IMG/VR virus record: IMGVR_UViG_3300027850_000003
Coordinates: 65,970-129,969 of that record
Direction: 5' to 3' (one strand)
Length of the DNA stretch: 64,000 bases
Source: a virus
Part shown: piece after piece, positions 20,806-55,858 of the stretch
How positions within the stretch are numbered: position 1 is the stretch's first letter
How the letters are laid out: every line of letters begins with the position of its first letter
Notes under the pieces: generated by a model
Database searches by the model: none
What the model saw: only the letters and a program-made list of their open reading frames with translations
What the model was told of the DNA's origin: nothing
Position numbers and translations under genes: made by a program

Positions 20806-20859
20806 AGCTCCAACGTCTCTTATCTTACGAACGAGACTTTAAATATTTTGCTAGGTTCC
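20806..20859. repeat. Dispersed non-coding element, copy 1 (short form)
   Basis: Reverse complement matches 53220-53252 (31/33) and 53309-53324 (16/16). Confidence 0.85.
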
Positions 20860-20917
20860 TATTTTATTTAGTAGAATAGTGATAAGAGTATTACACGTTT
20901 AACTTTTGTACACTTAC

Positions 20918-20947
20918 TAGGGGTTCTGATAAAGAGCCTCTATTTTT
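20918..20947 (+). terminator. Intrinsic terminator after tail tube gene
   Basis: TAGGGGTTCT/AGAGCCTCTA stem plus T tract. Confidence 0.6.
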
Positions 20948-20990
20948 ATGTCTTTATTAGGAAGCATTCTTTTCTATTGACATAATTTCT

Positions 20991-21049
20991 CTGACATATT
21001 TTATAAAACTTGGAATTCAAATATAGCTATATATTTCAACTTTTATGTC
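20991..21049. repeat. 59-bp box left of helicase 1
   Basis: CTGACATA...TATGTC; 45/59 ungapped identity to 22936-22994. Confidence 0.85.
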
Positions 21050-21070
21050 AGATATATTTTTTTATCTACT

Positions 21071-21101
21071 TTGACATATTTATTGAAATTAGTGCTATAA
21101 T
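21071..21101 (+). promoter_or_regulatory. Sigma70-like promoter of helicase 1
   Basis: TTGACA-19 nt-TATAAT with extended TGn -10. Confidence 0.6.
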
Positions 21102-21128
21102 GAATATATTCTATAAAATGTGTCAACT

Positions 21129-22907
21129 ATGAAATGTCAAATCAACGCACCAATCGAAGCTTTATATGTTAGTAATTTCTTAGATGAGATTCCTAAAGGT
21201 ATAGTAAATAAAGGAGCTTGTGGAGTAGGAATGAGTTCTATTGCTCTTGAAGATAATTATCCTACTATAATAGCTGTTCCTACTATTGAAGTTATTAAAA
21301 ATAAAACTGCCCAATACCCAAATAACAGAAGGTTAGAATCTGTATTCGGTTATTACGCAGATATTAAAGAGAAAAATCTAATTCACTATGTTAAGTCTAC
21401 CACAGTTCCTAAAATCTTAGTTACTTATGACTCTTTCCATAGGGTAGCTAAATTAGTAGATAAGAATAAATATCGAGTAGTAGTGGATGAATTCTCTGAT
21501 TTGTTAGATGCTTATAGCTATAGAGAAAAAGCTATTGAACATTTACTTACCTCAGTTCAAGAGTTTGATTATGTTAGCTATATCTCAGCTACTCCACTTA
21601 AAGAAGAGTATTATCCTGAAGCTCTTAAAAACCTTAATGAGTATGAGATAGTTTGGCAAGGTACAGTCAAAATTAAAGTTGAAAGAAAGAAAACTAATAA
21701 ACCTTATAAAGCTGCTTGTAATATTATCGACAGTTATCGAGCTGGAGGGGGAGAAGGATTATTGATGCCTAATGGTCACTATTCAAAAGCTGCTTATTTT
21801 TTTGTTAATTCAGTAAATTCAATTGCTAATATTCTAGAAGCTTCTGATTTAAATCCAACTGATGCAAGAGTTATTTGTGCTAATAACGAAGTGAATCAAA
21901 AAAAGCTAGAAAATTATCCAATAGAAACTGCTTTAGCTCCTGAGAAGAAGTTCAATTTTATTACTAGCACTGCTTTCAAAGGATGTGACTTTTACTCTGA
22001 GACTGGAGTTACTTATATTATTAGTAACACTTCTAACAGTAATACATTAATCTCGATTGATACGGATGTTAAACAAATAGCGGGTAGAATTCGTAACGCT
22101 AATAATCCTTTCAACAATCACATTTATCACATTTACAATACTGATAATTCATTACTATCTGCTGAGAATTTTGAGAAATTAGTACAAAAGAAAATAAAAG
22201 CTACTAACTCTATTATTTCAATGTTTTATAAAGGGAACGAAGATGAACGAGCTATTTGGTTAGAGAATTATTATTTGAAAGCTAAATGTAGATTTAGAGA
22301 TGACGACTATACTTATCTAACTGAAGAAGGAGATATTATTTTCAATGATTATGCGGTTCTAAATGATAAAAGAAGATGGGAAGTTTCTAGTAATGTTTAT
22401 CGAGATGGAGTGTCTATTAGACAAGCTTATATTGATGCTGGATGTTTTGATATTTCTACTTTCCAAGACTTTGAGAAGATTGAAGATGATGGGTTTCTTA
22501 GCAAACTTACTAATGGTAGTTTTAAAGAATATTGTCAGAGGTATATCAATAACTCAGATGAAAGACTTTATATTGGGGATAGATTCCCTGTTATTAAAGA
22601 AGCTTTTACTAAATTAGGTGAAGCTAGGATGAAAGCTCTTAGCTATAATGCCCAAAGATTTTTAGCTGAAATGCAAGCTACTTCGGATACTACAAAGAAC
22701 TACATAATTAAAGAATTAAAAGCGAATCTTAAAGTAGGGGAGGAATATGTCTTATCTGATATTAAGGGTTTACTCAATAGTCTTTACTATAAAGTAGGAA
22801 TCAAAAAGAAAGCTAAAGCTACTGAAATTGATAATTACCTTGAAGTTGAGAAACGACAGAGACGAGTAAATGGAGTTCTTAAAAACATGATCGTAATCAT
22901 TAAGTAA
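21129..22907 (+). CDS. SF2 helicase-like protein, paralog 1 (origin-binding-like architecture)
   Basis: NKGACGVGMS, VVVDEFS, SATP, QIAGRIR; ATG at 21129 preferred over GTG at 21120. Confidence 0.8.
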   Translation: MKCQINAPIEALYVSNFLDEIPKGIVNKGACGVGMSSIALEDNYPTIIAVPTIEVIKNKTAQYPNNRRLESVFGYYADIKEKNLIHYVKSTTVPKILVTYDSFHRVAKLVDKNKYRVVVDEFSDLLDAYSYREKAIEHLLTSVQEFDYVSYISATPLKEEYYPEALKNLNEYEIVWQGTVKIKVERKKTNKPYKAACNIIDSYRAGGGEGLLMPNGHYSKAAYFFVNSVNSIANILEASDLNPTDARVICANNEVNQKKLENYPIETALAPEKKFNFITSTAFKGCDFYSETGVTYIISNTSNSNTLISIDTDVKQIAGRIRNANNPFNNHIYHIYNTDNSLLSAENFEKLVQKKIKATNSIISMFYKGNEDERAIWLENYYLKAKCRFRDDDYTYLTEEGDIIFNDYAVLNDKRRWEVSSNVYRDGVSIRQAYIDAGCFDISTFQDFEKIEDDGFLSKLTNGSFKEYCQRYINNSDERLYIGDRFPVIKEAFTKLGEARMKALSYNAQRFLAEMQATSDTTKNYIIKELKANLKVGEEYVLSDIKGLLNSLYYKVGIKKKAKATEIDNYLEVEKRQRRVNGVLKNMIVIIK

Positions 22908-22935
22908 ATTAGTAGAGGAGCCTTAAAACTCCTCA

Positions 22936-22994
22936 CTGACATATTTTATTAAATCTCTATATCATATTAAGGTAAATATTTCATTTTTTATGTC
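22936..22994. repeat. 59-bp box right of helicase 1
   Basis: Direct repeat of 20991-21049. Confidence 0.85.
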
Positions 22995-22999
22995 TTTGA

Positions 23000-23200
23000 G
23001 ATAGTGAAGTTAAAAAATTATTTAGTGGGAAATCTGGTTTTTACTTATCTAAGGATATAAAAATTATACTGAGTTATCTTTATAAAAATTTAGGAGTGGA
23101 TAAGAAAGCTAAAGCTAATGATATAGAACCTGTTTTAAACGTTAAAGCTACTGCAAAAAAGATAAATAAAAAGACTGTAGTAGGTTACGAGTTGATATAG
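23000..23200 (+). pseudogene. Start-less remnant of the helicase C-terminal domain
   Basis: FYLSKDIKIILSYLYKNLGVDKKAKANDI..KINKKTVVGYELI* aligns with the C-terminus of 53441..55123; in-frame TGA at 22997. Confidence 0.8.
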
Positions 23201-23386
23201 AAGTAACCTCTATTTTATATCTATCTTTAATTTATAGAATGACTTATTCCCTTTTATTTTAAAAGCTATCCTATTCTTAGGAAAGTTAGAAGAAAAAAGG
23301 GGATTAATGTCAATAGTACCAAAACATAATGTTGATAAAATGTTTCAATCATGAGGTAATTGAGTTATTCTTCAATTAAATTAAAA

Positions 23387-23460
23387 TGACCCTGGTAGAA
23401 GTCGAATCTACAACATCCAAATTAGAAGTTTGGTACTCTGTCCAGTTGAGTTACAGGATC
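23387..23460 (-). tRNA. tRNA-Arg (anticodon UCU), no encoded CCA
   Basis: Cloverleaf: GATCCTG/CAGGGTC acceptor, ACTC/GAGT D-stem, CCAAA-CTTCTAA-TTTGG, GTAGA-TTCGACT-TCTAC. Confidence 0.92.
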
Positions 23461-23525
23461 GTTATTAAATACTAACATATTATTGAGGTAACTAGATTAT
23501 TCTAATTACCTCTTTTTATTATCTC

Positions 23526-23636
23526 TTACTTATTAGTATCTTTTTTAGGTTTTTCAGGAATATAAACTTTTATACTTACTTTTTTTCCTTTGTCATCTTC
23601 AGTAATCCACTCAGCATCTGGCTTTTGATCATTCAT
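23526..23636 (-). CDS. Possible 36-aa peptide
   Basis: MNDQKPDAEWITEDDKGKK...; short, not in ORF track. Confidence 0.3.
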   Translation of the reverse strand: MNDQKPDAEWITEDDKGKKVSIKVYIPEKPKKDTNK

Positions 23637-23686
23637 AGTTTTTGTCTCTTTATTATACTTTTATTATACTTCTTCTAAACGAGTTC

Positions 23687-24172
23687 TTACGAGTTAAATT
23701 TTCCGCCGTTAATATCCTCCATAATAGAAAGATAACTACTTAAATTATCTTTAGGAGTAATAGTAGTAGTACCAGTAAACTCTTTTCCATTGAACCAGAA
23801 ATAAGGAATTCTTAACTTCTCAACAAACTCCATTTCTTTTTTAGTTGAGTAACCAATATAATTAGTCTCATCTGTCACTATTACTGCTGCGTTAGACTGA
23901 TATATTTTATAGTAGTGAAGCATTTTTACTTGATCATAGTCTCTTGTTAAAGTATCAGTACCATATAAATCAAAGGAATGACCCCAACTCCCACACATAG
24001 TTATTATCCAATTTTTAAAAGTAAGTAGCTTGTTAACTCTCATAGCTTGGAAGAAGTATTTAGTAGAACCACACAATACTACGTTCCCTGAGCCTTGAGT
24101 AAAGAATTCATCGGAGGTATAGTTAGTCATATTCTTCAGTCCTATTGAGTACAAAACGAGGTTAAATAACAT
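23687..24172 (-). CDS. Hypothetical Rossmann-like protein (nucleoside deoxyribosyltransferase-like fold, tentative)
   Basis: VVLCGSTKY..LHYYKI..YIGYSTKKEM. Confidence 0.45.
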   Translation of the reverse strand: MLFNLVLYSIGLKNMTNYTSDEFFTQGSGNVVLCGSTKYFFQAMRVNKLLTFKNWIITMCGSWGHSFDLYGTDTLTRDYDQVKMLHYYKIYQSNAAVIVTDETNYIGYSTKKEMEFVEKLRIPYFWFNGKEFTGTTTITPKDNLSSYLSIMEDINGGKFNS

Positions 24173-24221
24173 TCTAACATGATAGAGTATAATTAAGTAG
24201 TAAAAGTAAACGATAAATAGT

Positions 24222-24305
24222 ATGCATCAAAGAATATGTAGTTGGAGTAATAGTGCTGGATTTGCTAGAAAACTAAGAAGTGATAAAGGAAGAAAAAGAA
24301 AATGA
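24222..24305 (+). CDS. 27-aa leader peptide, or frameshifted N-terminus of the next gene
   Basis: MHQRICSWSNSAGFARKLRSDKGRKRK*, ATGA overlap with 24302. Confidence 0.5.
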   Translation: MHQRICSWSNSAGFARKLRSDKGRKRK

Positions 24306-24694
24306 ATAGACGTGACTTTCTAAAATTAGGCTCATCAACAATTAGAAAACAAGCTACTTCCATTCCCTCTGAAATAGCTAAAGTTTCTAAAAATACTGTT
24401 GGTAATCTAATGGAATATGACAAAACAGTAAAAGCAATTAAGACTGACGGTAACAAAGTTATTAATAGAGGTTCTTTTTTAAGTAAAGCTAAGAAAAAAA
24501 TAAGTTCATTATTAATACGAAACCCTAAAGAGACTACTTATTTAGCTAAAAAAGGAGCAGGAACTATGTTAAACGCTACTAAAACTGCCTCTAACCCAGT
24601 AGGTGCAGCCCTTAAATTAGATGGTAGAAAGTTAGGTAAAATTGGTAAGTTCCTTAGTAAATTTAGAGCTAATAATAACTTGACGAGGTTTTAA
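24302..24694 (+). CDS. Basic protein beginning NRRDFLK
   Basis: 130 aa, K-rich. Confidence 0.6.
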   Translation: MNRRDFLKLGSSTIRKQATSIPSEIAKVSKNTVGNLMEYDKTVKAIKTDGNKVINRGSFLSKAKKKISSLLIRNPKETTYLAKKGAGTMLNATKTASNPVGAALKLDGRKLGKIGKFLSKFRANNNLTRF

Positions 24695-24803
24695 TATTCT
24701 TAGGGTCTAAAAGCTTTTACTATAACACTTAAGAGAACCAAAAAGAATTAGACTTAATACTTGGAATCAGTTTAAACAGTTCAGTTAAAATATGCGACAA
24801 ATT

Positions 24804-25244
24804 TCATATCCCTAACTTCTGAGCTGATAAATAAGATAGTAAACCGCAAGACCAAGAGAACATAGCAAAATCCATTATTTCTCTTAAGTCTAAATTTAAA
24901 TCATTAGGGTTAAGAATGAATAATAGATATACTAAATATCCACTCCAACATCCTTTACAAAATGGACAAGCTAATAGTTTCTCTAATGTCTTATATAATC
25001 CGAACCAATAAATATTAGGTTTCTCATTAGTAGTATAGACTATGAGATTAGTATTATTACTTTGGGTTTTCTTAGTAGATAGTTCAAATTGTTCTTTTGT
25101 CCATAAGAGTAATTTTTGCCATAGTAGTCCAGTTATCTTATAATCAAATAGTAGAAATCGAGAAGATATAGCATAAAGAAATAATAATGCTATATTATGA
25201 GAAGGTAAGTTAAAAGAATAATAATCCATAATGAAAAATTTCAA
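24804..25244 (-). CDS. Membrane protein with CPFC motif (DUF1360-like, tentative)
   Basis: LLACPFCKGCWSG plus hydrophobic segments. Confidence 0.5.
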   Translation of the reverse strand: MKFFIMDYYSFNLPSHNIALLFLYAISSRFLLFDYKITGLLWQKLLLWTKEQFELSTKKTQSNNTNLIVYTTNEKPNIYWFGLYKTLEKLLACPFCKGCWSGYLVYLLFILNPNDLNLDLREIMDFAMFSWSCGLLSYLSAQKLGI

Positions 25245-25698
25245 AGTTAAAGTACAAAGTTCAATTTACAATCCTGAGACTGATTCGACTTCTTTAGTTA
25301 CTAATAAAGTATATATTATTCAACGAGTAGTTAGGAGTGAGTTAGACACTATTATCCAATTACATAAAGAGGTTCTTATTAGGTTTTTAGATACTGATGC
25401 TAATATGGGAGAGTTTATCCGTAATAATGAGTCATGGGAATTACTTAAGACTTTAGCTAAAAATTTAAATATTTTAGGACAGAAAGAGAAAGGATTTGAT
25501 TTAGAAGAAATTGCAGATGACTTAGAGCAAATTTGCCAAATATTTATTTCTCAAAGTATGAGTGATGAGGGAGTGCTAGATTTAGAAGAAGGATGGAAAC
25601 CGTCTCTCTTAGCAGATTTACATAAACTAGATTTTCCTTTATATATGAGAGAAGCTATAAAAAAGTACCAGGAGAAGAGGGAAGAAAAGAAAGAGTAA
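25231..25698 (+). CDS. Tail assembly chaperone (gpG-like)
   Basis: Upstream of tape measure; slippery A-AAA-AAG at 25659-25665. Confidence 0.7.
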   Translation: MKNFKVKVQSSIYNPETDSTSLVTNKVYIIQRVVRSELDTIIQLHKEVLIRFLDTDANMGEFIRNNESWELLKTLAKNLNILGQKEKGFDLEEIADDLEQICQIFISQSMSDEGVLDLEEGWKPSLLADLHKLDFPLYMREAIKKYQEKREEKKE

Positions 25699-26012
25699 AA
25701 TTATCTGCTCCTCTACCTAGTTCTGGTGATAGTTCTATTGACCAATTAGCTTTTCTCTTAGAAGTTTATAAAGAATATCCAATTAATCCAGTTAGAGATT
25801 TATGGGAGAAATTAGATAGTATCTCTTTAGATTTACTAATTAATCAGACTCTTGAACATCATAGACCTCAAGAAGAAAGAAATAGAGAATTTGCAGTAGA
25901 GCTAGGAGAGAAGTTTAAGCAGGAGAAAGGAGATTCTTCTATCATTACTATAAATAATGGTAAACAAGTATCTGCCAACGATTTTATGAATTTTAAATTT
26001 GATAGTAATTAA
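25659..26012 (+). CDS. -1 frameshift extension of tail chaperone (gpT-like)
   Basis: -1 frame open from the slippery site to TAA at 26010, 2 nt before the tape measure ATG. Confidence 0.75.
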   Translation, partial: KKVPGEEGRKERVKLSAPLPSSGDSSIDQLAFLLEVYKEYPINPVRDLWEKLDSISLDLLINQTLEHHRPQEERNREFAVELGEKFKQEKGDSSIITINNGKQVSANDFMNFKFDSN

Positions 26013-26014
26013 TA

Positions 26015-29000
26015 ATGGATACCAGTAGCAATATTAAGTTTAACGTTGAGGGGGATGATAAGTTCTCTAAATTTCTAGAAAAAACTCAGAAGTCATTAAA
26101 AGAACTAAGTGAAAAGACTCTTAAAACTTTTAGTGCAGGGTTTAAATCATCTTCTGCTGAGATTACTAATAGTCAAAAAGCAGTAGAAAAGTTATTAGTT
26201 GAATATAATAAGCTCTCTAAGAATACTCTCACTTTAAATAAAGCAACTCAGACATTAACTAAAAGTTTTGGGTTAGCTTTTGCTGCTTTTGGTGCTTATA
26301 CTAATGTTATTCAGGCTAAGGCATATTTTGATGTAGTTTTAGGTGGGGTTTTAGAAATTCGAGAAGCTCTTGAAAAGACAGGTCGAGGGTTAAACTTAAT
26401 GGCTGCTAGCGGATACGATGCAGCTCCTCTAGTAAATACTTTTGGAGAAATAGCAGCAGTAATAACAGGTAATCAAGAAGCTATTGAGAACTTCACTACT
26501 AAATCTACTTTAGCTTTTAACTCGTTTGAACAAAAACTAAATGAAGTAAATATTGTATTTGGTTTATCAAAAGAAAGGTTATCGGAATATGGAGATGCAC
26601 TACAAAATGGATTAGAAAAGAATCTAAAGAATAGTGTATCTTCGCTTACAGCATTAAACGCTGCATATCAAGCTGCTTCTGGTGGGTTTACTGAGTTTCA
26701 ACAAAACCAAGATGTAGTGAATCTAGCAATTAAAGCTAATAAAGCTGCTCCTGGTAGTGACCTATACCAGCTTGGGGGTGCTATTAGTAAAGGTGCTGGA
26801 CTATTAGAAACTAAAGATGTTAAAGAATTAGAAGTTGTTACTGCTAAATGGTTAGCCACTGAACAGTTAGGTTTAACTACTGTAGGAGAAATGACTGAAT
26901 ATCTTACTGGTATGTATTCAGCTCTTAAAAATGCAGGTGTAGGTACTAATAAATTAGTAGATGAGACTCAAGGCTTAGTAGTAGCTTTTACTAAGTTAGG
27001 TGCTAAAGTTCCAGAGATTACTACTCAGATGGAAGCTTTTAGTAGAAATACTATTAGCAAAACTCCTGAAGCACAAAAAGCATTAGAAGGTTTAGTTGAT
27101 GCTCAAGGTAAAGCGATTACTCTTAACCAAGAATATTTTAAAGATAAAGGAATAGTTCAAGGTATATTAGATTTTGCAGAAGCAGTAGGATATAACACTG
27201 AGAAGATTAAAGAAGTCTATAACGAGACTAATGCTTTCAACTTTGCAATGAAAGTGTTAGCTCAGAATGGTAAATTAGCTAAAGACTCAATTGAGAGTAT
27301 TAGTAAAGTTACTTCTGAAAATTTAACTGAAGCTTTTGACTCTGCTACTTCTTCCTCTCAAGCTAAGATGGAACAAATCACTAACTCCTATGATGAGATT
27401 ATGATTTCTTTTGGTAAAGCTTTTAAACAAAGAAGTCAAGAAGGAATTGAATCTGTAGAGATTTATAAAAAATTATTAGTTACATTTAAAGACCCTCTTA
27501 TTAAAATAGCGGAGACATCTATTGCTGTTTTCGATAATATTAGTAAAGTTACAGGAGTGTTAGGAGCAGTAGCTAAGACAATTATTAGTATTGGAGGTAG
27601 TCTGCTTAGCTTCAAAGCTTTTGGTTTAATTCTTGGTGGATTAACTAATGGTTTCAAAGATTTAAGAAAAGAAAGCTCAGTAATTAAAGACCTTTACACT
27701 TCTAATCAAGGTTTAGTAGCTATTGGTAAACAGGTATTAGGAATAGACCAACAAAAACTACTAAGTCAAGACAGAATTAATAAAGCAATTGCTAACTCAT
27801 CAACTTTAGAAAGAGAATTAACTAATTCAATAGGTAAGACTAATGAAGCAAGAGCATCGTCTATTACAGCAGTACAAAAAGAAATAGACGCAATAGTAGC
27901 TAGAGATAACTCAGTTATTAAAGGACAAGCTAATGTAGCTAAAATAGAGGAATCTCTTCAAAAGAAGCAAGATAAAAGTAGGGGGTTACAAGATCAAGTA
28001 GTAGAGACAGAAGGTACAGTATCAACTACTGAAAATCTTAAAAAAACTATTGATACTAAATTAGCTGACGATATTGGAAATGTTCAAAGATTTAAAAAAT
28101 TAGAAGAACTAAATGCTAAAGAATCTCTTATCAGACAAGGGGAAATTGGGGATAGAGAAAAAGCTCAACTAAAGCAAATCAACTCTGAAAAACTTAGATT
28201 AAATAACACTTATTCTAATACTACTTTAAATGAGTTAAAAGACTTAGAAAAGCAAAAAGATGTAATAAGAGCTAAAAGTAATAAGAGAGAAAAAGATTTT
28301 GTAGACTTAGCAAAACTTAGAACTAAAGAGTTAGAGGTATTAGCTAATGAAAAAGAGAAACAAAAAACTCGTACTCCACTAACAGATAAAGAAAAATCTA
28401 ATTTATCTAAAGCTAGCGCTGACCTAACAAATAAGATTAATCAGGAAGAATTAGTATTACTAAGTCAACGTCAGAAACTACAAGAAGCTAATAACTTAGT
28501 AGATAAGGAATCTGAAAAATTAAATAAAGCTAGAGTAAAAGAAACTGAAAATCTTAATAGAGTTACTAAAGCTACTACTGAGCTAGCAGTGCTACAACAA
28601 GATTTAAATACTAAAAAAACTACAAGTGATAGAGTCAATATTGCTACTGAAATTCAAAACCAGAAGCTTTACTCACTACAAAAAGATTTAAGGAAAGAGC
28701 AAAATACTCTTGATAAAATTAGAAATAAAGATAGTCAGGAATATCAACAACAATTACAAAAAATATCTAAATTACAGGAGCAAGAAGCTGCTCAACAATC
28801 TACTGTTCAAAAAGCTAGAACTACTCAACAGCTAGCACAAAAAGAGTATAACAAAGCTGATGTAGAAGCTAGAACTAAATTAAGAGAACTTACTAAACAA
28901 CAAGGCTTAGCTGAAGGTTCTTTAATAAGTTTAAAAACTAAATCAGGGGAAATTACTTTTAAAAATACTGCTTTTAATAGAGGAATAATCTCTTCAGTAG

Positions 29001-32000
29001 AAGGCTATGGAAAAACAATTACTGCACTACAAACTCCTTTTGAAAGTTTTGGGAAGTTGCAAGATAAATTAAAAAATAAAGTAATAGATTTAAAAACACA
29101 AATTAGTCAAACTGGGGCCGAGGCAAAAGTTGAATTAGACGCTGCTGGTAACAAAATCTTAACTACTTCTCAGAAAATAAGTAATAGTTTTAAATCTATA
29201 GGGGAGTCTTTTAAAGGAGCATTAATATCTACTGGAATTGGATTAGTTATTGGGGCAGTGATAGGACTAGGAGTTAAGCTAGTTCAGATAGGTCAAGAAC
29301 AAGCTAAATTAGATAAAATATATAAAGAGTTTAATATTACTTTAGAAGAGTCCGCTACTAAATTTGATAGAGCAAATATATCTTTTGATACTGGTACTCA
29401 AGGACTTAGTAAGTTTGGAGATAGGATAGAAAATTCTAAAAAATTAATGTTAGAGACATCTAGTGTCTGGGATGCTTTAGGCTCTACTGTAATGAAAGTA
29501 GTAGATTTAATAGTTTTTAATTTTACTAAATTAAGTCCTGGGGGAATACTACTCTCTTCTATGTGGAATAGTTGGTCAGATGCAGCATTTACTAAAAGAG
29601 CTGCTAAGATGTCTCAAGTATCTGATTTTATTCAAGTTTATGAGCTATCTCTTAGAGGACAAAATAAAGAGTTAGAGAAAGGGAATTTATTAACTGAAAC
29701 TTCTAATCAAAAAATAAAAAATAAGATGATTCTTACTGGGGAAGACTTAGAGCGAGAAAAAGCTGCTAATTCTACTCGTATTGAGTCATTCCAATCTATG
29801 ACAGATGTTCAAAAAAAGCAGCTAGAACAACTAAAAAGTATTGGAGATAAATTAACTGATAGAGATAAAGCTCAAATTAGTATTCTTGAAGCTGAAATAT
29901 CTAGACGAGAAAAATTAGTTGAAGTTAGTAAAAAACAATTTGAGAACCAACTTAAATATCAAGAAGCTCGTAATCTACTAATAGATAGAGAGAATAAGTT
30001 TAGTAACGAACAAGTATCTCTTAATGAATTAAAAACTCTTCAAGGTGAAGTAGATAGCTCTCAAACTACTTTAAATGCAAATATTAGTTCTGGATTAGAC
30101 ATTTATTCTAGTTCGATCAAGGACTCCACTATTAAATCTAAACAATTTCTTTCTGACCTTAAAGATGGAAGCTTAAGTGTTAAAGCATCTATCAAATCTC
30201 TTGGTGGGGAAATTTATAAAGTAGGAGAAGATAGTAAAGTAGTAAGTCAATTACCCGCAGATGTTTTAAAATCTATTCAAGATGCTATTAAAGGTAAAGA
30301 AGTAGACGGTAAGAAATACTCCTTAGAGCAGGTATTAAATCTTAAAGAGACTAGAGATGCTCTTACTACTGCTGGGGTAGAAATACCTAAAGACTTAAAA
30401 GTTCTAGCAGATAAAATGAAAAAGAGCTATGAAGCTTCTGAAGGGGAACTTCAATTAATAAATCTTAAAGACTTAGAAAAAGATTTAGCGGGTTTTAGCG
30501 TATTAAGTGATAAATACCAAGAGAAGAAGAGACAGTTCCTATCTACTACTAAAGATGACATTGGTGCTACCACCTTCTCAACTTCGCTTAGAAAATCTCT
30601 TAGGTTAGCAGAGACAGATTTACAGAACTTTAATAATGCCTTAGATGCGTCTTCTAAAGGTGCTAATAAGTTTGTGACATCTTCCACTCAGAAATTTACT
30701 GAACAAGCCTTAAAAGGGACATTAGACCTTACTGAAGGATTAAAAGAGCTAGGTAAAGTAGAAAGTGAGATTGATCCTAAACAATTAGGAAAACTTAAAG
30801 ATGCAATTACTGGTAAAAATAAAGATGAGATATTAAGTGCATTAAAAGAAATTGGAGTTACTACTGAACAGACATTATCCGCCGATTCAATTGACTTTAA
30901 TAAGTTTGAAGCAGGTATTACTACTTTTGTTGAATCACTAAATGCAGTGGCAGAAAGTGGGGAGATTAGCAGTGAGGAAGTAGCTAAAAAGTTTGAATCT
31001 TTCTATGACCAAATGAAAGGTAAAGTTACCCCTGCTGCTTATAAAGATTTAACTGAGACTCTTATAGGTTATGAGAAAGCTGCTAGTACCCAACGTATTA
31101 ATCTTATTACAATGGAGACTAACGCATTAGAACAACAGAAAAAATATGGCTTAGTCTTAGAGGAAGATTATATTAAGGATGTTAACAACTTAAACATTAA
31201 GACTACTGAAGAAAATATTAATAATAAAAAAATTGAGCTGAAAAGATTGCTTAGTTTATATAAAGAATCTGCTCCTCAAATAGTTAAGGCTAAAGCTGAA
31301 TTAGAGTCTTTAGAGCTAGATTTAAATGCACAGAAATCTAATAATCCTATAGAGATAGCTAAATCACAAAGTAAGGCGAGATTTGATGTTTTAAAAAAAG
31401 ATTTGGAATTAGGTAATGTCACAAAAAGACAGTATATCGAAGAGGAACTTAGAGATTCTAAAAATCTATATTCTATTCAACTATCCGAAAAACAAAAGAC
31501 ATTATCCGAGCTAATGAAAGATGAGGTAAAAAATGCTAAGGCTATCAAAGCTTTGAGAAAATCTATGGAATTAGACGAAAAAGACTTTAATCTTAATCTA
31601 TTAGAAATCAATAGACGGAGGATTGAGGAGCAGTTTAAGATGCAAACTAACGCTTTAGGTAAAAGAGATTTAAAAGCTAGAGAAGCTGCTATAAACGGTA
31701 CTACTAAAGCTGAGTTAGAATCAAATCGCCAATTAGAAAGAGACAAGATTAGTCTTAATATTCAAAGTTTACAAGCTAGATTAGCTATTGAAAAAAAAGG
31801 TAGTGATAAGTTCCTTGAGATCGAGAGACAATTAGTAGAGGCTCAACTCTCTTTAAGGGAGACTCAAGTTAAACAAGGTAAGGATCGAGTTAACGAGTCT
31901 ATTGAAGCTAAAAGAACTGAACTGTCCACTATTGCTGCGTTAGAAGAAAGAAATAATTTAAAAGGTACTTCTGACGAAAGTTTAGAAAAGACTAGAAAGC

Positions 32001-36306: not shown

Positions 36307-36476
36307 ATATAAAGAAATTAGACGATAGGTTCGTCAGTAGCTAGGTAGTTTTAGATAGATTAGAAGAAAATGAAAAGGGTGTCGGTTAAAATGATACCCT
36401 TGGAGGTAGACAAGAAACTGGTATTATCCACTATTTTAGAAAATTACCTTAAGAGTAAAACCAAATAATTTTGCTA

Positions 36477-36502
36477 AACTGATGACAAAGTATAATTGTT
36501 GT
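36477..36502. repeat. Left 26-bp inverted repeat of helicase 2
   Basis: AACTGATGACAAAGTATAATTGTTGT, perfect reverse complement of 38371-38396. Confidence 0.95.
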
Positions 36503-36510
36503 AGTATAAT
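36482..36510 (+). promoter_or_regulatory. Sigma70-like promoter overlapping the inverted repeat
   Basis: ATGACA-17 nt-TATAAT. Confidence 0.55.
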
Positions 36511-36550
36511 GTAGATAGACAAGAACAAAAGTTTATCGCCAAAACAAAAA

Positions 36551-38335
36551 ATGCAACATAACATTATCGAAGCACCAATTAAAGCCATCTACCTAAGTGA
36601 GTTTCTTACTGAGTTACCTCAAGGAATACTAAATAAAGGGGCAACTGGAGTAGGAGGGACAGAAATGGCTCTTAAATCATCAGAGTCTTATATAATAGCT
36701 GTTCCAACAATAGAAATAATAGTTAACAAAAAGAATCAGAACCCAGAGATAGTAGAAGTTTATGGAGATACTACATTTAAAGAGTTTTCAAAACAGATTA
36801 AAAGTAGAGTCAAGTATAAGATTTTCACTACTTATGATTCACTTCCTAAAACTATTAATTGGCTTACTTCTTTAAGTACCAACCCATATAAAACTAGATT
36901 ATTAGTTGATGAATACCACAAAATACTAAATGATTATAGCTATCGTGATAAGGCAATTGATAATCTACTAAAACAAGCGAGTAAATTTGAGTATGTAACT
37001 TATTTATCTGCAACTTCTATTAAGCCTAAGTTTACTCCTAGAATATTAGAATCTCTTGATTATACTGAGATTAAATGGTCTACTAAAGAGATTAAATTAC
37101 ATCGGAAGAAAACTCCTAATCCTTTTGCTGCAGTAGTTAAAATTATTACTAGATACAAAGCTAATAATTACCAGATGAAAATCAATGGTCATATTAGTAA
37201 TGAAGCATATTTCTTTGTGAATTCGGTTAAGTCAATTAAAGATATTATTAACAACGCTGGACTTACTCAAGATGAAGTGAAAATTATATGTTCTACTACT
37301 GATAGAAATCAACACATACTAGATGATTTTGAGATTGGAAATGTTCATGATCCTAATAAACCTTTTACGTTCGTTACTTCTAAATCATTCCTTGGAGTAG
37401 ATTTTTACTCGGATAGTGGAGTCATTTACGTTGTTAGTAATGTTAATAGAAAAAATACTCTACTAGATATTTCTACTGATATCACTCAAATAGCTGGCAG
37501 GATTCGTAATATCAATAACCCATTCAAAGATACTATCTTCCATATTTATAATACTGGGATACAAGAGCTAAGCCAACAACAGTTCAAAGATAATATTGAA
37601 AAGAAAATTGAAAACACTAATATTCAAATCAATGTCTTTAACAATAAGTTAGAACCAAAAGAAAAAGCTGCTTTCTTAGTTCGATATGAGTTAGATATCG
37701 AAAAAGATTACAGCTATTACAATCCGGAAACTAATGAATTAGAGTTTAATGAACTTAAAAAACTAAATGAGGAGTTTAACTACGAAGTTCTATTCACTAT
37801 TTATAATAATGGTATTAGTATTCGTCAAGGATATTTAGAAGCAGGATTTACTCTTGAAGGAAACCAAGAATATGAAAAAGTAGAAAAAGATTTCTTAGCA
37901 ACTGCTACTAGCATAAGTTATCAGTCAATGTTAAAGCAATATGTGGAATTAATATCTCAAAAAAATCTTAGTTCTGATGACCAATATACTTTAAATAGTA
38001 TTGATAAGTTAGATCCTACTATTAAGAAAGCAGTAGATATTTTAGGAACCTCTCGTATTAGAACTCTACGATATCATAAAAGTAAAATAACTAATGAACT
38101 TTATTATAACTCTAACCAAGTTAAAGAAGCTATTAAAAGTAGTTTAGCTAAGAAAATAGAAAATAATAAATTTTACAGTTTCAATGAGTGTAAAGCTTTA
38201 CTTAGTGACATTCATATCATTCTTAAAATAGATAAAAAATGTAAAGGTAAAGATGTTTTAAGTTATTTAGAAGGAAAAGTTATTAATAAACGAATAGAAG
38301 GAATCCTACTTCAAGGATGTATTTTTGAGGACTGA
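36551..38335 (+). CDS. SF2 helicase-like protein, paralog 2
   Basis: NKGATGVGGT, LLVDEYH, SATS, QIAGRIR. Confidence 0.8.
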   Translation: MQHNIIEAPIKAIYLSEFLTELPQGILNKGATGVGGTEMALKSSESYIIAVPTIEIIVNKKNQNPEIVEVYGDTTFKEFSKQIKSRVKYKIFTTYDSLPKTINWLTSLSTNPYKTRLLVDEYHKILNDYSYRDKAIDNLLKQASKFEYVTYLSATSIKPKFTPRILESLDYTEIKWSTKEIKLHRKKTPNPFAAVVKIITRYKANNYQMKINGHISNEAYFFVNSVKSIKDIINNAGLTQDEVKIICSTTDRNQHILDDFEIGNVHDPNKPFTFVTSKSFLGVDFYSDSGVIYVVSNVNRKNTLLDISTDITQIAGRIRNINNPFKDTIFHIYNTGIQELSQQQFKDNIEKKIENTNIQINVFNNKLEPKEKAAFLVRYELDIEKDYSYYNPETNELEFNELKKLNEEFNYEVLFTIYNNGISIRQGYLEAGFTLEGNQEYEKVEKDFLATATSISYQSMLKQYVELISQKNLSSDDQYTLNSIDKLDPTIKKAVDILGTSRIRTLRYHKSKITNELYYNSNQVKEAIKSSLAKKIENNKFYSFNECKALLSDIHIILKIDKKCKGKDVLSYLEGKVINKRIEGILLQGCIFED

Positions 38336-38370
38336 TGATAAATATAGTAGATACTAGGAGTCGTTTAACA

Positions 38371-38396
38371 ACAACAATTATACTTTGTCATCAGTT
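38371..38396. repeat. Right 26-bp inverted repeat of helicase 2
   Basis: ACAACAATTATACTTTGTCATCAGTT. Confidence 0.95.
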
Positions 38397-38411
38397 ATAA
38401 AAATTATAGTT

Positions 38412-38440
38412 AAGGAGGTAGAATATAAAACTACCTTTTT
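38412..38440. terminator. Terminator between convergent genes
   Basis: AGGTAG/CTACCT stem plus T tract. Confidence 0.6.
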
Positions 38441-38446
38441 CTCCCT

Positions 38447-38659: not shown

Positions 38660-38680
38660 TTTAATTACTCACCAGTACAA

Positions 38681-38950: not shown

Positions 38951-38982
38951 GTTATTTTAATTGTATAGCTTTTTAATTACTT

Positions 38983-51961: not shown

Positions 51962-51968
51962 TGTATGC

Positions 51969-52505
51969 TTATTCTTCTAAATAATCTTTACTAGAAACCC
52001 ACTTAAAATGATCCAAAGATAAGACTTGACTAACACTACTAATTAATAAAGGATTATGCACTGCACAGATTATTTGCTTAGTAGTAGACTCATCTTTCAA
52101 AAACTTAGATAACTTTTTAATAGATTTAATAGATAACGCTAAATCTGGTTCATCTACTAAAACGGCTACATTATCTTCTAACTTAGATATTGTCCTTAAT
52201 ATTGAGTTATTTGATTCTCCATGACTATGAAAGATAGAAGCGATTTGAGAAAGAGTTTCTATTCTACCTTTAGTTCTAGGATTACCATGTTCTAAATCTA
52301 GATAGCAACAATCATTATATTCATCAGTTTCTACTGTTACATCTATCTTTTCTCCTGCTATTTTTTTCCCAAAGATTACTTCTAATAAAGAAGATTTTCC
52401 ACTACCATTGTCTCCTACTAATAGATTTAATCCTTTCTTAAAAGTAAATATCTGCCCCTTAGTAAACTTTCTAAAATTAGAGTTAAAGGTTATTGATTTT
52501 AGCAT
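51969..52505 (-). CDS. ABC/AAA-type ATPase
   Basis: GDNGSGKSS, SHGE, LVDEPDLALS, AVHNP. Confidence 0.85.
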   Translation of the reverse strand: MLKSITFNSNFRKFTKGQIFTFKKGLNLLVGDNGSGKSSLLEVIFGKKIAGEKIDVTVETDEYNDCCYLDLEHGNPRTKGRIETLSQIASIFHSHGESNNSILRTISKLEDNVAVLVDEPDLALSIKSIKKLSKFLKDESTTKQIICAVHNPLLISSVSQVLSLDHFKWVSSKDYLEE

Positions 52506-52906
52506 TATAAGACCTCTACTATATCTCCATCACAATCATTAGCTTCATAATACACTTTACCGTATTGCTTCATTCCCTCACAAATAGATAATACTATCTC
52601 CTCTGCTAACCCCCAATAACTAAGACTCCAAATAATTTCCTTATCTCCATACTCAGAATAATCACTATCGCAATCAAAGTGAACCATTAGGATTCTAGAT
52701 TCATTATTAACTTTAAAGTAGATATTGAAGAATTTACTACTTGGATTACATTCAATTCTAGGAAACTGACTTGTCTTATCTTTCCACACATAATCTCCAG
52801 AAGAATATTTCTTAATAATAGGGATTAGTACATTTTCTATTTTACTTAATACTGAGAAGATATCTTTATTCTCAGTCACTACGAACCCAACAGTTGAAAT
52901 TCCCAT
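52505..52906 (-). CDS. Hypothetical protein
   Basis: 133-aa ORF. Confidence 0.55.
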   Translation of the reverse strand: MGISTVGFVVTENKDIFSVLSKIENVLIPIIKKYSSGDYVWKDKTSQFPRIECNPSSKFFNIYFKVNNESRILMVHFDCDSDYSEYGDKEIIWSLSYWGLAEEIVLSICEGMKQYGKVYYEANDCDGDIVEVL

Positions 52907-53131
52907 TTATTTTATTTCCTTACTCTTAACTACTTTATCTACTAACTTTTTCCAATCATCTATCAAAGGCTTATAGTTTACATAATATTCCTCACTAAAC
53001 TGTACTTCACTTCTCTCTCCACTATAGGCTCTGAACCTTGTTTCACTATGATTTCCGAGTCTCGTTTCCCACTCCTCCTCATACTCTTCAATATAAAGTT
53101 CGTTATTATAATACTTAATAAAAATAATCAT
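52907..53131 (-). CDS. Hypothetical protein
   Basis: 74-aa ORF. Confidence 0.5.
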   Translation of the reverse strand: MIIFIKYYNNELYIEEYEEEWETRLGNHSETRFRAYSGERSEVQFSEEYYVNYKPLIDDWKKLVDKVVKSKEIK

Positions 53132-53219
53132 AGTTCACTGATACTAAAATAAAGAATATTAAATAAGTCTCATTCTTTCTCTCGCTTTGACTCGTTCTCT
53201 CATTCCTATACTATGACTT

Positions 53220-53324
53220 GGAACTTAGTAAAATATTTAAAGTCTCGTTCGTCTTTGAGTAGTTGCTTAGTATCTAGTGGTGACTAAGATATTAGAACAA
53301 AATCTTCCAAGAGACGTTGGAGCT
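53220..53324. repeat. Dispersed non-coding element, copy 2 (long form)
   Basis: Same two blocks as 20806-20859 in inverted orientation, separated by 56 nt instead of 5. Confidence 0.85.
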
Positions 53325-53440
53325 AATAGAAAATCTTAAGAAAAGATTAAGATAAGGAATTAATTATAATAGATACCACTTTTTTCTACCATATAAGGTT
53401 AAAATAGAGATATCCCAAACAGAAAAAGTGTTAAAAATAA

Positions 53441-55123
53441 ATGTATTACTCCGATAAATATTCAGAAATTCCAAATGGCATAGTTGACAAAGGAGCTTGT
53501 GGAATAGGTTTAACTAGCTATGCTCTTGAGAATAATGTTCCTACTGTAGTAGTTACTCCTACTGTAGCTATGATTAAAAACAAAGTATCTCAATACCCAA
53601 ATAATAGAAGGTCAGATTCAATTATAGGATTTTACCAAGGAGTATCACTAGCTACTATTAAAAATTATATTGAATATACTGCTATACCTAAAATAATGGT
53701 AACATTTGATAGTTTTTATAAAATAGTCCCTTTTATAGATGACACTTACCAAATCATAGTAGATGAGTTTAGTGAATTATTAGATGCCTATAACTACAGA
53801 AATAAAGCAATATCAAAATTACTTATTGAAGTTCAAAAGTTTAGTAAAGTTTCTTATGTATCAGCTACTCCTACTAAAGTCGAATATCTCCCTCTTCAAT
53901 TAAAAGATTTAGATTACACTACTTTAGAATGGGATGATTTAACTAAGATCAATATTGATTTACTTCATAAAAAAAGACCTATTCAAACTGTTAGAGCTTT
54001 AATAAATAAGTACCGTAGTGGTTTAGTAGAAATTAACGGAATTAAAAGTGATGCAGGATATTTCTTTGTTAACAGTGTTCGGATGATTAAAGAAATATGT
54101 GAAAAATCAGAACTCTTAAATTCTGAAGTTAGAATTATTTGCTCGGATACAGATAAGAATAAACGTACATTAGGTGATTATGATATTTCTACTTCACTTG
54201 ATCCCGAAACACTATTTACTTTTATTACTTCTTGTAGCTTTAAAGGTTCAGATTTCTATAGTGAAAGAGGTGTAGTATTTGTAGTATCCAATAATACTAA
54301 TACACATACATTAATAACTATTGACACAGACATTATTCAAATCGCAGGTAGGATAAGAAACCCTACTAATCCTTTCCGAAACTACTTATGTCACATCTTT
54401 AATGTTAATCCTCTTAGTTTAAGTAGAGAAGAATTTTTAAAAATAACTGAGGAGAAGATTAAACAAAGCAATACCTTATTACAAGGATATAGTAAACTTA
54501 CTGATGAAGAACGAGATTTATTTCTCTCAACTCAAAATTTAGAAAACTTTTATATCTCTATAACTGAAGAAGGAGTTCCTTACTATGACGAGATGTTGTA
54601 TTTATTAGATAAAAGAAGATATGAGGATATTGCTCAAGTATATAAAGATGGTCTTTCTATTAATAGTTATTATTCATCTTTAAATGAAGTAGATGTATTG
54701 TCTAGCACCAAATTAGATATTGACTATTTAGTTAATAATTCTTTTTATTCTCTTTGTAAAACTGCTGTTGAAGGTAAAGGGGATTTAGAAACTATTTATA
54801 AACAATTTCCATTAATTAAAGATGCTATTGAAAAATTAGGAAAAGAAAAAATTAAAGCTTTAGGTTTTCATATCACTAAAATTCAATACGAAATTGACGA
54901 CTTTGACAAAAAAGATAAAGTTAAAACAGTGGTGATAAAAGAAATAGACAAAGAAAAATTTTATAGTTGTAAAGATATGAAGATATTACTTGGATACATT
55001 TATGCCAGACTAGGTATTAGAGCAACCGCTAAAGCTTCAGATATTTTAGAATACTGTAACGCTAAGTTATGTTATAGAAAAATAAACGATAAAACAGTAA
55101 AAGGATATCAAATAGTAATTTAA
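53441..55123 (+). CDS. SF2 helicase-like protein, paralog 3
   Basis: DKGACGIGLT, IIVDEFS, SATP, QIAGRIR. Confidence 0.8.
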   Translation: MYYSDKYSEIPNGIVDKGACGIGLTSYALENNVPTVVVTPTVAMIKNKVSQYPNNRRSDSIIGFYQGVSLATIKNYIEYTAIPKIMVTFDSFYKIVPFIDDTYQIIVDEFSELLDAYNYRNKAISKLLIEVQKFSKVSYVSATPTKVEYLPLQLKDLDYTTLEWDDLTKINIDLLHKKRPIQTVRALINKYRSGLVEINGIKSDAGYFFVNSVRMIKEICEKSELLNSEVRIICSDTDKNKRTLGDYDISTSLDPETLFTFITSCSFKGSDFYSERGVVFVVSNNTNTHTLITIDTDIIQIAGRIRNPTNPFRNYLCHIFNVNPLSLSREEFLKITEEKIKQSNTLLQGYSKLTDEERDLFLSTQNLENFYISITEEGVPYYDEMLYLLDKRRYEDIAQVYKDGLSINSYYSSLNEVDVLSSTKLDIDYLVNNSFYSLCKTAVEGKGDLETIYKQFPLIKDAIEKLGKEKIKALGFHITKIQYEIDDFDKKDKVKTVVIKEIDKEKFYSCKDMKILLGYIYARLGIRATAKASDILEYCNAKLCYRKINDKTVKGYQIVI

Positions 55124-55858
55124 CACCTCTACTCCTTTAACAAGTTTACCTTTTAACCTAACAGTTTTATATTTAACTTCTGCGTAATTAGCTATATCAA
55201 TAGCTTTTCCTTTCTTTGCAATATCTAGTTTTTCATAAATATTATTGAGAGTATTTTTAACAAAAGCTAGAGAATAGAAAGTCTCTATATCTAAAAGTCG
55301 AATGAGTTCATCTTTAATACATTGCTGAATATCAGTGTTATTAAATTTAAGCTCATCTATTAATCTATTAACAAGATAACCTAAAGCTTTCATTCTCTTG
55401 GCTCCTAATTTAGTAAAAGCCTCTCTAATAATAGGAAATCTATCACCAATATAAAATCTTTCATCTGGGCTACTAATATACTTCTGACAATATTCTTTAA
55501 AACTACCATTAGTAGGAAACCCATCATCTTCAATCTCTTCTACCTCGTATTTTTCTGGTAATTCTACTTTAATTGTTACTCCACCTAAATAAACTTTTTC
55601 TTTATTAAATGTAGGATGCAGAGTATTAATTAAATAAGTCTCAATAATATCTGAGTCTGCTAGAGATTCACAAGGATAATACTCAATTACATCTATTAGT
55701 GATTTCCATTCCTGATACTCTGGATCATTAGGATTAAAATGATCATTTAGCCTACTTCTAAGATTTGAGCTTCTACCAACATAAGCTAGTTCATTTTTGA
55801 CATAAAGAAGATAAACCCCAATTTTTTCTTTTAACGGTTTTAAATGAAACTTAATCAT
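55067..55858 (-). CDS. GIY-YIG nuclease fused to the helicase C-terminal module
   Basis: GVYLL..YVGRSSNLRSRL..E..LINTLHPTFN; C-half highly similar to paralog 1 from IEDDGF onward. Confidence 0.85.
   Translation of the reverse strand: MIKFHLKPLKEKIGVYLLYVKNELAYVGRSSNLRSRLNDHFNPNDPEYQEWKSLIDVIEYYPCESLADSDIIETYLINTLHPTFNKEKVYLGGVTIKVELPEKYEVEEIEDDGFPTNGSFKEYCQKYISSPDERFYIGDRFPIIREAFTKLGAKRMKALGYLVNRLIDELKFNNTDIQQCIKDELIRLLDIETFYSLAFVKNTLNNIYEKLDIAKKGKAIDIANYAEVKYKTVRLKGKLVKGVEVLNYYLISFYCFIVYFSIT

Follow-up and report, generated by a model that had tools for sequence, protein, structure and literature searches.

A multiplied family of helicase-like cassettes with cognate flanking repeats in a large phage: candidate portable origin-plus-initiator units

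A 129,969-bp contig of a freshwater phage in IMG/VR (record IMGVR_UViG_3300027850_000003) carries, within its bases 65970-129969, three divergent genes for helicase-like proteins of superfamily 2 (SF2), H1, H2 and H3, each lying beside short inverted boxes. This stretch of 64,000 nucleotides is called the window here, and coordinates refer to it unless marked "contig". The initial annotation proposed that each protein recognises its own flanking boxes and that the units are either selfish or homing elements without a transposase or a set of alternative origin-initiator cassettes. What kind of unit, then, does each of these genes represent? Our analysis gives good support to a descriptive answer: each gene is a self-contained cassette with cognate flanking repeats, which has been multiplied, relocated, gained and lost, and which is kept under purifying selection. 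As to function, we give about an even chance to the reading that each unit is a portable origin-plus-initiator cassette, whose protein would bind two-box sites through its tail and open the spacer between them with its motor.

The open reading frames (ORFs) of the three genes, with their lengths of 560-595 amino acids (aa), were confirmed, and H1, H2 and H3 showed a pairwise identity of 34.5-40.0% over 577-597 aa. On the whole contig the family is larger than had been noted. Family similarity was found at eight places, five of them in the window, and the inventory comprises five full-length paralogs (the three in the window, and Ha and Hb elsewhere on the contig), two fusions of a GIY-YIG domain with the C-terminal module of the family, one GIY-YIG-only ORF and one module remnant (Table 1). 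The module was indeed present five times in the window, namely in H1, H2, H3, the convergent GIY-YIG ORF next to H3 (GIY2) and the start-less remnant. This remnant is nearest to the Ha/H3 type rather than to H1, and is therefore the stump of an older, different cassette in the H1 slot. Three relatives also carry several copies: at least two in G001 (an 81-kb fragment), three in G002 and two in G003, compared with five here. G003 has terminal repeats and is therefore probably complete. The 12 full-length copies from this phage and these relatives form the clade set used below.

We then scored the flanks of the 12 copies. To obtain the inverted-repeat score, the flank upstream of each copy was locally aligned with the reverse complement of the flank downstream, and the best alignment was taken; the controls were 518 other ORFs from these four genomes, each 100 aa or longer. 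The results showed that the copies scored 41, 34, 27, 20, 17, 16, 16, 15, 13, 11, 11 and 9, with 11 for H3, while the controls averaged 9.9 and peaked at 15. A score of at least 16 was thus reached by 7 of 12 copies and by none of the 518 controls; when inverted or direct repeats were taken together, the figures were 9 of 12 and 7 of 518. The inverted arms comprised a perfect 26 nt at H2, 31 nt at Hb and 39 nt (45 of 47) at Ha, and their sequence differed each time, each set of arms being unique to its cassette. H1 has no long inverted arms; instead, a site of about 59-62 bp, composed of two inverted boxes, stands on either side of it in direct orientation, with TGACATA at 20992(+) and 21044(-) and then again from 22937. 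Outside the clade set, the copies of the larger phages G005 and G007 have direct repeats of 60-80 nt; for the single-copy homologs on smaller phage contigs (L018-L081), exact inverted repeats around the gene reached 12 nt at most.

The box pairs that had been described, TGACATA, ACTGATGA and CACTTTTT, were all found in place. The flanks of H1 hold 5 of the 16 TGACATA copies of the genome, and ACTGATGA occurs at 38331(+) and 38388(-) with a span of 65 bp. Counted as bare 8-mers in the window, ACTGATGA occurred 8 times against 2.2 expected (0 of 100 shuffles reached 8), TGACATAT 4 times against 2.06 (14 of 100 shuffles reached 4) and CACTTTTT 4 times against 5.0. Bare 8-mers are therefore weak evidence, with ACTGATGA alone above chance. 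The longer repeat structures at H1 and H2 lie far outside chance expectation. At the level of whole sites, the boxes follow the protein lineage: by inspection of the sequences, H1 and the copy G1_b have TGACATATTTTAT in common, G2_c and G3_b share CTGCTACTTTTTTATTA and TTACCGCA, and Ha and G3_a share TTACTTTTT pairs, which at Ha stand with identical spacing at both gene ends. A similar box pair to that of H3 was also read upstream of its 86% ortholog in G002. On this pattern each protein may recognise its own boxes, as the initial annotation had supposed.

Next, we compared the positions of the copies among the relatives and found that they are not syntenic. The H1 slot, which follows the putative tail-tube gene, contains no helicase-like gene in G001-G003: the slot is occupied by one 60-aa ORF in G002 and in G003, and by unrelated ORFs in G001, where the gene neighbouring the equivalent slot is 94% identical. 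The nearest relative of H1 (80% aa identity) lies among early-gene homologs in G001, and that of H3 (86%) adjoins a portal-like gene in G002, with flanking genes 51-69% identical. Cassette-bearing slots vary in every relative and elsewhere contain small genes unrelated to the cassettes; the slot of G2_b, for example, is not empty in G003 but carries other sequence. Nucleotide homology between H1 and its G001 ortholog starts at the upstream TATGTCA box and stops just past the downstream TGACATATTTTAT box. Homology bounded in this way by the boxes indicates that the sites belong to the moving unit, and the presence of the same TGACATATTTTAT boxes at H1 and at its 80% ortholog in another context agrees that the boxes go with the gene.

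Gain and loss were also seen in natural populations. Contigs of four freshwater/aquatic metagenome runs (X1-X4, of which X1 is possibly the source sample) were placed on positions 20000-39900. The joint 36470->38446, corresponding to an H2-less allele, was found in an X2 contig with a depth of 230.3 and in an X1 contig with a depth of 16.7, compared with about 220 for the main form in X1. It recurs in two runs from two studies, and 0 letters fit both sides of the joint. Depth in X2 was 6-21 inside H2 and 217-336 in its flanks. These depths indicate that the 1975-bp unit is present in most genomes of one sample and missing from most of another, so that both filled and empty sites segregate at H2. 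The indel extends past the arms, by 6 nt on the left and by 49 nt on the right; since the H2-less allele lacks both arms, the arms belong to the insert. In addition, one X2 contig contains an opposite-strand joint, 36478->38395, with a depth of 53.3 and 145 letters on its shorter side, which is the junction expected if the cassette flipped between its arms. At H1, the X2 contigs exit the reference at 20955 and re-enter at 23376, and the depth was 93.5 in H1 compared with about 460-580 outside. Further deletion-type joints in X2 lie in the island after H1 (23464-24806), namely 23464->24162, 23520->24806 and 24188->24806, at depths of 153-186, indicating that several alleles of this slot coexist. 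A 23-mer of the H2 arm had 0 matches in IMG/VR, from which its own record was possibly left out. Insertion of the cassette into the centre of a pre-existing hairpin was considered and rejected, because the H2-less allele lacks both arms and the arms have no counterpart in the relatives.

The ratio of nonsynonymous to synonymous divergence (dN/dS, Nei-Gojobori) was 0.04-0.15 in all five ortholog pairs. By this measure the genes are under purifying selection, and the copies appear functional rather than decaying. The syntenic pair G2_c/G3_b, with 95% protein identity, had a dN/dS of 0.04 at a dS of 0.83, which marks an old and strongly constrained lineage that was not recently transferred; recent horizontal transfer as the source of the 95% identity is ruled out by this dS. 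The H1 lineage is represented once in each of the four genomes, as might be expected of a resident copy that is needed, beside optional ones.

The helicase likeness of the proteins was assessed by structure prediction. An AlphaFold2 model of H1, built from 30 sequences, had a predicted local distance difference test score (pLDDT) of 84.9. VIA-align matched residues 4-464 of the model to eIF4A1 (Z 19.3, root-mean-square deviation (rmsd) 4.2, 318 aligned residues), DbpA (Z 18.8) and DinG (Z 17.9). All 500 counted Foldseek matches had E <= 0.001, and every match shown was an SF2 protein; the tandem RecA-like domains of the superfamily are present by both comparisons. Motifs II (DE), III (SAT) and VI (QxxGRxR) were invariant in 12 of 12 clade copies and in nine more distant members, and D123, E124, A157, T158, Q319, G322, R323 and R325 were invariant in a 10-sequence alignment (A4) of H1 with those nine members. 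Motif I reads (N/D)K-x3-G-x-G-x-(S/T) nearly everywhere, with C preceding the lysine in one distant member. The usual lysine position holds M, G, L, C or A, and the invariant lysine K31 sits 7 residues upstream. The likeness to SF2 helicases that had been proposed is thus upheld, and by its predicted fold the protein is an SF2 motor protein of an uncharacterised phage family.

This family has no name in the collections that we searched. The Pfam ResIII and DEAD matches to the window proteins fall below the family cut-offs, and PHROGs, NCBIfam and PADLOC gave no name for the helicase-like proteins. A word-seeded search nevertheless found at least 989 relatives at E <= 0.001 among 8,000 candidates scored, and the named entries were all "hypothetical protein". 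Searches of PDB sequences with alignments A1 and A2 gave nothing below E 0.3, and tblastn against 50,697 GenBank phage records matched six records only, none of them SPbeta or a named T4-like phage. A known defence component was considered and rejected, as no PADLOC model matched at E <= 0.01 save a 14-bit Cas3d-like stretch in Ha. The size of this unnamed family makes it worth attention, and its Walker A motif without the canonical lysine is of interest for the enzymology of SF2 ATPases.

We further modelled the last 141 residues alone, with a pLDDT of 90.3. The final 75 or so residues of the module matched winged-helix DNA binders, including the RFX DNA-binding domain (Z 6.2) and the C-terminus of the phage NrS-1 primase-helicase (Z 5.4), and the P4 origin-binding domain 1ka8_A matched at Z 4.5; the ESM Atlas gave no usable match for the module. 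From the model, the tail ends in what is probably a DNA-binding winged helix. The initial annotation had described the module as swappable. However, it was found in all nine more distant members aligned (truncated in one, L058), indicating that it is an ancestral part of the family and has not been exchanged among helicases. It is less conserved than the motor core in four of the five ortholog pairs (core/module 85/66, 89/77, 73/60 and 73/53%), with G2_c/G3_b as the exception.

By sequence comparison, exchange has taken a different form, in which GIY-YIG nucleases captured the module. The GIY-YIG domain of GIY2 matched Pfam PF01541 (E 2.1e-9, 38 bits against a cut-off of 22.6), and an NCBIfam group I intron endonuclease model matched below its cut-off (E 1.4e-5). 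The C-terminal 160 residues of GIY2 were 45.7% identical to H1 residues 426-587. At the nucleotide level, 55381-55536 of GIY2 and 22477-22642 of H1 were 83.3% identical over 168 nt, while the rest was unrelated or far more diverged, which suggests a fairly recent graft. Other genes that combine GIY-YIG and the module were found in G001 (N-terminally truncated) and in G006 (directly after the helicase gene), and GIY-YIG-only ORFs directly follow Hb and G2_a. Upstream of the first GIY-YIG fusion gene on the contig, contig 45930-45964 was 91.9% identical over 37 nt to contig 14180-14216, which contains the Ha promoter and boxes; this fusion gene thus appears to share the regulatory site of the Ha cassette.

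The cassettes also look like separate transcription units. A promoter-like sequence upstream of H2, ATGACA-17-TATAAT at 36482-36510, agrees with the consensus at 11 of 12 positions, and inspection by eye showed -10-like elements upstream of the other copies, in line with the description of the genes as stand-alone units. The 19-nt spacer of the H1 promoter-like element is atypical for sigma-70. Five of the 12 copies are oriented against both neighbours. The terminator scan called none on the + strand, and Rfam at gathering thresholds found one tRNA only. An RNA panhandle or RNase III stem between the 5' and 3' untranslated regions seems unlikely for H2, where the best promoter-like site puts the transcription start after the left arm, but may exist at Hb.

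Members of the family in other genomes were examined for context. One full-length copy each was found in the large phages G004, G005, G007 and G008, and G006 has an extra module-only match. In smaller, temperate-looking phages the gene lies near regulators, a serine recombinase and terminase. A BT4734-like_N protein is encoded near the helicase-like gene in L071 (directly beside it), L076 and L077, and is fused to its N-terminus in P0115; BT4734-like proteins make up one family of the archaeo-eukaryotic primases (PMC5862659). The single-copy homologs of phages Phab24 and D'Alembert come first in an operon and are preceded by 0.9-1.35 kb of non-coding DNA. This context of the distant members points to a possible ancestral role in starting DNA replication together with a primase of archaeo-eukaryotic type.

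Taken with the cassettes themselves, these observations can be arranged in a working model. The winged-helix tail would read the two-box sites of its own cassette, and the ATP-driven core would open the AT-rich spacer between the boxes, like UL9 at oriS or P4 alpha at ori/crr, making each cassette a small origin-plus-initiator module. One site overlaps the cassette promoter, and the cassette is therefore probably also self-regulating. Recombination during co-infection would let cassettes spread, flip and replace one another. The GIY-YIG-module proteins would be nucleases aimed at cassette sites, as Odn is at the PLE origin, which would explain their place next to cassettes.

Several observations weigh against this model. 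Binding, unwinding and origin activity are predictions from sequence, and the initiator role is proposed on the strength of the primase association in distant members and of modest winged-helix matches: 5 of 48,161 chains reached Z 5 and 0 reached Z 8, values that by the structure tool's own warning may reflect a common arrangement, and Foldseek with the isolated module found nothing at E <= 0.001. Motif I lacks the Walker A GK(T/S) in the 12 clade copies and the nine distant members, and ATPase activity is accordingly assumed from the other motifs and the invariant upstream lysine. This phage has its own DnaB-like (AAA_25) helicase, and no BT4734-like primase was found in it. No significant bracket surrounds H3, its ortholog G2_b, or G3_a. 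The perfect arms of 26-39 nt far exceed what a binding site needs, and no binding model explains them; that the two arms are identical suggests either that they often convert one another or that the mobility process itself makes them. The G2_c/G3_b lineage looks vertically inherited and core-like, and not every copy is a hopping element. The hairpin with a U-run that follows H2 has no folding advantage over shuffles (z -0.73). Finally, the population evidence consists of contigs rather than raw reads, with one contig per run per joint, and the empty-site joint at H2 has just 30 letters on its shorter side.

Other explanations account for parts of the data. The cassettes could be autoregulated morons, promoter-to-terminator units shuffled by illegitimate recombination, in which the boxes are operators and the protein has its real job elsewhere, such as exclusion of a rival phage or satellite, or anti-defence. 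The H2 indel, spanning a -35-like hexamer to a hairpin with a U-run and having no target duplication, would suit such a unit, as would box pairs that enclose or overlap promoter-like elements, the variable slots with unrelated small genes elsewhere, and the five copies turned against both neighbours. Autoregulation, however, needs no second site, and a second copy of the site follows the stop codon in 9 of the 12 copies; the link of relatives to a primase domain, the PADLOC result given above and the unusual finding of two to five diverged paralogs, each with its own sites, also argue against it, and we consider this explanation unlikely. Homing by a tail-guided GIY-YIG nuclease seems to us less likely still. 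The nuclease would cut cassette-less or rival alleles at or near the boxes, and break repair would copy the nuclease and the helicase cassette, the helicase being cargo or target. A GIY-YIG gene lies immediately next to a cassette in four cases: it follows Hb, G2_a and the G006 copy, and is convergent with H3. The fusions join a nuclease domain to a DNA-binding domain in the classic arrangement, the empty-site joint has neither microhomology nor target duplication, as repair-mediated gain predicts, and a LAGLIDADG intein in ribonucleotide reductase indicates that homing elements are active in the lineage. Yet no nuclease gene adjoins H1 or H2, and G003 carries two cassettes without any GIY-YIG homolog. 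The module is missing from two of the GIY-YIG ORFs that lie beside cassettes (they may be decayed), and homing leaves unexplained both the cassette-specific repeats at the two ends and the strong constraint on the helicase.

The flanking repeats raise the further idea of a transposon-like element, in which they would serve as terminal repeats. Excision, inversion and insertion would then be the work of the SF2-like protein itself, with or without help from host factors. The perfect inverted repeats around H2, Hb and Ha, their absence together with H2 from the H2-less allele, the opposite-strand joint at the outer ends of the arms and the single ORF of the cassette are what such an element would show. 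Against it, Pfam (three window proteins) and NCBIfam (five paralogs) found no transposase, recombinase, HUH or nuclease domain, PHROGs found no transposase, integrase or HUH domain in the cassette ORF, and the structure search with H1 matched helicases only; no SF2 ATPase is known to act as a transposase. There is no target-site duplication at 36470->38446 and no direct repeat is visible at the ends, the indel ends lie outside the arms, indicating that the arms are not termini, and H1, H3 and several orthologs have no inverted arms. Lacking both a recombinase domain and a target duplication, the transposon reading fails on two defining features of transposons, and we judge it very unlikely. 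A bolder reading, about as doubtful as homing, is a "selfish origin", a new kind of mobile element free of transposase and integrase. Here the SF2-like protein would fire its own sites, and the flanking repeats would then cause template switching or fold-back, releasing, flipping or re-inserting copies; the helicase-like protein would be the mobility enzyme, the arms by-products, and the GIY-YIG-module nucleases a counter-weapon or a hitch-hiker. Origin-dependent inverted-repeat amplification is one mechanism that could connect an origin to inverted repeats around it.

Should the cassettes prove to be origin-plus-initiator modules able to multiply and to move inside phage genomes, they would offer a possible third route of gene mobility in phages, beside homing endonucleases and morons, and multi-origin replication in large phages would become testable. 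The nuclease fusions offer natural pairs of a DNA-binding domain and its site for studies of specificity. They also suggest that theft of the DNA-reading domain from an initiator, of which ICP1 Odn has been the demonstrated case so far, recurs as a strategy.

Table 1. Positions of the cassette genes, their flanking elements and related features
Feature	Position	Strand	Description
H1	21120..22907	+	SF2 helicase-like, with C-terminal module predicted to be a winged helix; 595 aa from GTG, 592 aa from ATG at 21129
H2	36551..38335	+	Helicase-like paralog, 594 aa; weak Pfam ResIII match, E 0.0012
H3	53441..55123	+	Helicase-like paralog, 560 aa; without long flanking repeat; weak Pfam DEAD match, E 0.0018
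Ha	contig 12475-14154	-	Full-length paralog
Hb	contig 60645-62477		Full-length paralog
Module remnant, start-less	23030..23197	+	48.2% identical to H3 residues 504-559; 59.1% to Ha residues 496-559 over 66 aa
H1 left two-box site	20989..21052	+	TGACATA, about 45 nt, TATGTCA; direct-repeat score 17 against 22934-22997
H1 right two-box site	22934..22997	+	Direct copy of left site
H1 promoter-like element	21071..21101	+	TTGACA, 19-nt spacer, TGcTATAAT (extended -10); layout kept in G001 ortholog
H1 block	20956..23375	+	H1 cassette and older remnant; other sequence instead in dominant X2 strain
H2 cassette by population indel	36471..38445	+	1975 bp: left arm, promoter-like site, ORF, right arm, weak hairpin with U-run
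H2 left arm	36477..36502	+	Perfect 26-nt inverted repeat; contains -35-like hexamer
H2 right arm	38371..38396	-	Pairs with 26-nt left arm; with half-site 38331-38338 makes the 65-bp box pair
H3 upstream box pair	53377..53430	+	CACTTTTT at 53377(+) ... AAAAAGTG / 53423(-), 54 bp
GIY2	55067..55858	-	GIY-YIG domain and family C-terminal module; convergent with H3, overlaps its 3' end
Second GIY-YIG-module fusion	contig 45064-45879		Pfam GIY-YIG E 2.6e-7
GIY-YIG-only ORF	directly after Hb		110 aa

Other features of the contig were recorded alongside the cassettes. Upstream of H3 (53160-53213) and, inverted, upstream of Hb (contig 60416-60469) there is a repeated element of about 54 nt with GGAATGAGAGAACGAG in it, the two copies being 90.7% identical over 54 nt, and a 29-nt piece of it lies upstream of H1 (20831-20859, 93%); this element may mark variable slots. 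Two tRNA genes border slots of this kind that bear cassettes: tRNA-Arg(TCT) at 23387-23460(-), 11 nt after the block replaced in X2, and tRNA-Tyr(GTA) at 55962-56042(-), just upstream of the GIY-YIG fusion gene. Downstream of H1, a 161-aa ORF at 23687-24172(-) had no Pfam or PHROGs match. Its homolog in L014 (10841-11275, 79% nucleotide identity) lies about 3 kb downstream of a helicase-like gene in an unrelated 57-kb contig. The neighbours that the initial annotation called tail tube, chaperone and tail tip had no Pfam or PHROGs match, and the assignment of the region to a tail module rests on a weak tail-completion PHROG at 18436-19020 and on the size of a 3228-aa ORF. A blastn search of 20000-24000 against GenBank phages gave no match.

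At the contig ends (contig 129183-129383 and 1870-3165), the G002 homologs are adjacent, with small ORFs and a helicase cassette between them, and the contig is probably near-complete and permuted. The CheckV completeness of 42% looks too low; G003 (146.5 kb, with terminal repeats) was rated just 48%. A 573-aa ORF at 61500-63221(-) has sulfotransferase and family-2 glycosyltransferase domains. Outside the window, a 1150-aa ORF at contig 15730-19182 contains a B12-dependent ribonucleotide reductase insertion domain, an intein splicing domain and LAGLIDADG. It is an intein-bearing class II ribonucleotide reductase, indicating that other selfish elements are present in this phage.

Among known systems, the herpesvirus UL9/oriS design invoked by the initial annotation holds as an analogy of design and not as membership of the UL9 family by sequence. 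As in UL9, the SF2 motor occupies the N-terminal two-thirds and a DNA-binding part is predicted at the C-terminus, and the candidate sites are inverted boxes around an AT-rich spacer. The origin-binding protein of HSV-1 on OriS DNA (9hgi_A) was at Foldseek rank 19 (E 9.3e-9) with the highest TMq listed, 0.44, but with an rmsd of 22, and lay outside the 50 VIA-align matches shown; by VIA-align, DEAD-box proteins, DinG and RecQ scored equal or better. No match to PF02399 (Herpes_ori_bp) was found at E <= 1 for the window proteins or at E <= 10 for the six-frame translation of the whole contig. Unlike UL9, the proteins here have no Walker lysine, and each gene is flanked on both sides by the sites; a genome carries two to five diverged copies, and the units are gained and lost. 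P4 alpha is likewise a helicase with a C-terminal winged-helix origin-binding domain, to which the module's match was low, and has repeated binding sites in two places several kb apart; it is, however, a primase joined to an SF3 helicase and a single-copy essential gene.

Another published description concerns a predicted novel helicase family, specific to viruses and plasmids and linked to archaeo-eukaryotic primases (pVOG1685/9714; Kazlauskas et al. 2018, PMC5862659), which our family resembles by description in having a BT4734-like primase domain near or fused to distant members. One group of these remote SF2-like helicases is given there as most similar to UL9 (PMC5862659), and the accessible part of that account includes no flanking sites, multiple copies or mobility (PMC5862659). 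GIY2 resembles the free-standing Seg-type GIY-YIG homing genes of T4-like phages in its N-terminal GIY-YIG domain, C-terminal DNA-binding part, intergenic position and variable neighbours; it differs in that its DNA-binding part is borrowed from the helicase-like family, and the helicase cassettes themselves have no nuclease domain. Compared with the PLE replicon modules and ICP1 Odn, an SF2-like ATPase stands here in place of the RepA_N initiator, the putative initiator and the nuclease occur in one phage genome, and several putative modules are present per genome, some within the virion gene block. The specificity domain and its DNA site vary in PLE as one module (PMC8263062), as they appear to do here, and Odn, a GIY-YIG-superfamily nuclease, cleaves the PLE origin at the initiator iterons (PMC8263062). 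Both systems thus include a GIY-YIG-superfamily nuclease with a copy of the DNA-binding domain of an initiator, or here of a candidate initiator: the DNA-binding part of Odn is 42% identical to that of PLE RepA_N (PMC8263062), and the corresponding identity here is 46-50%.

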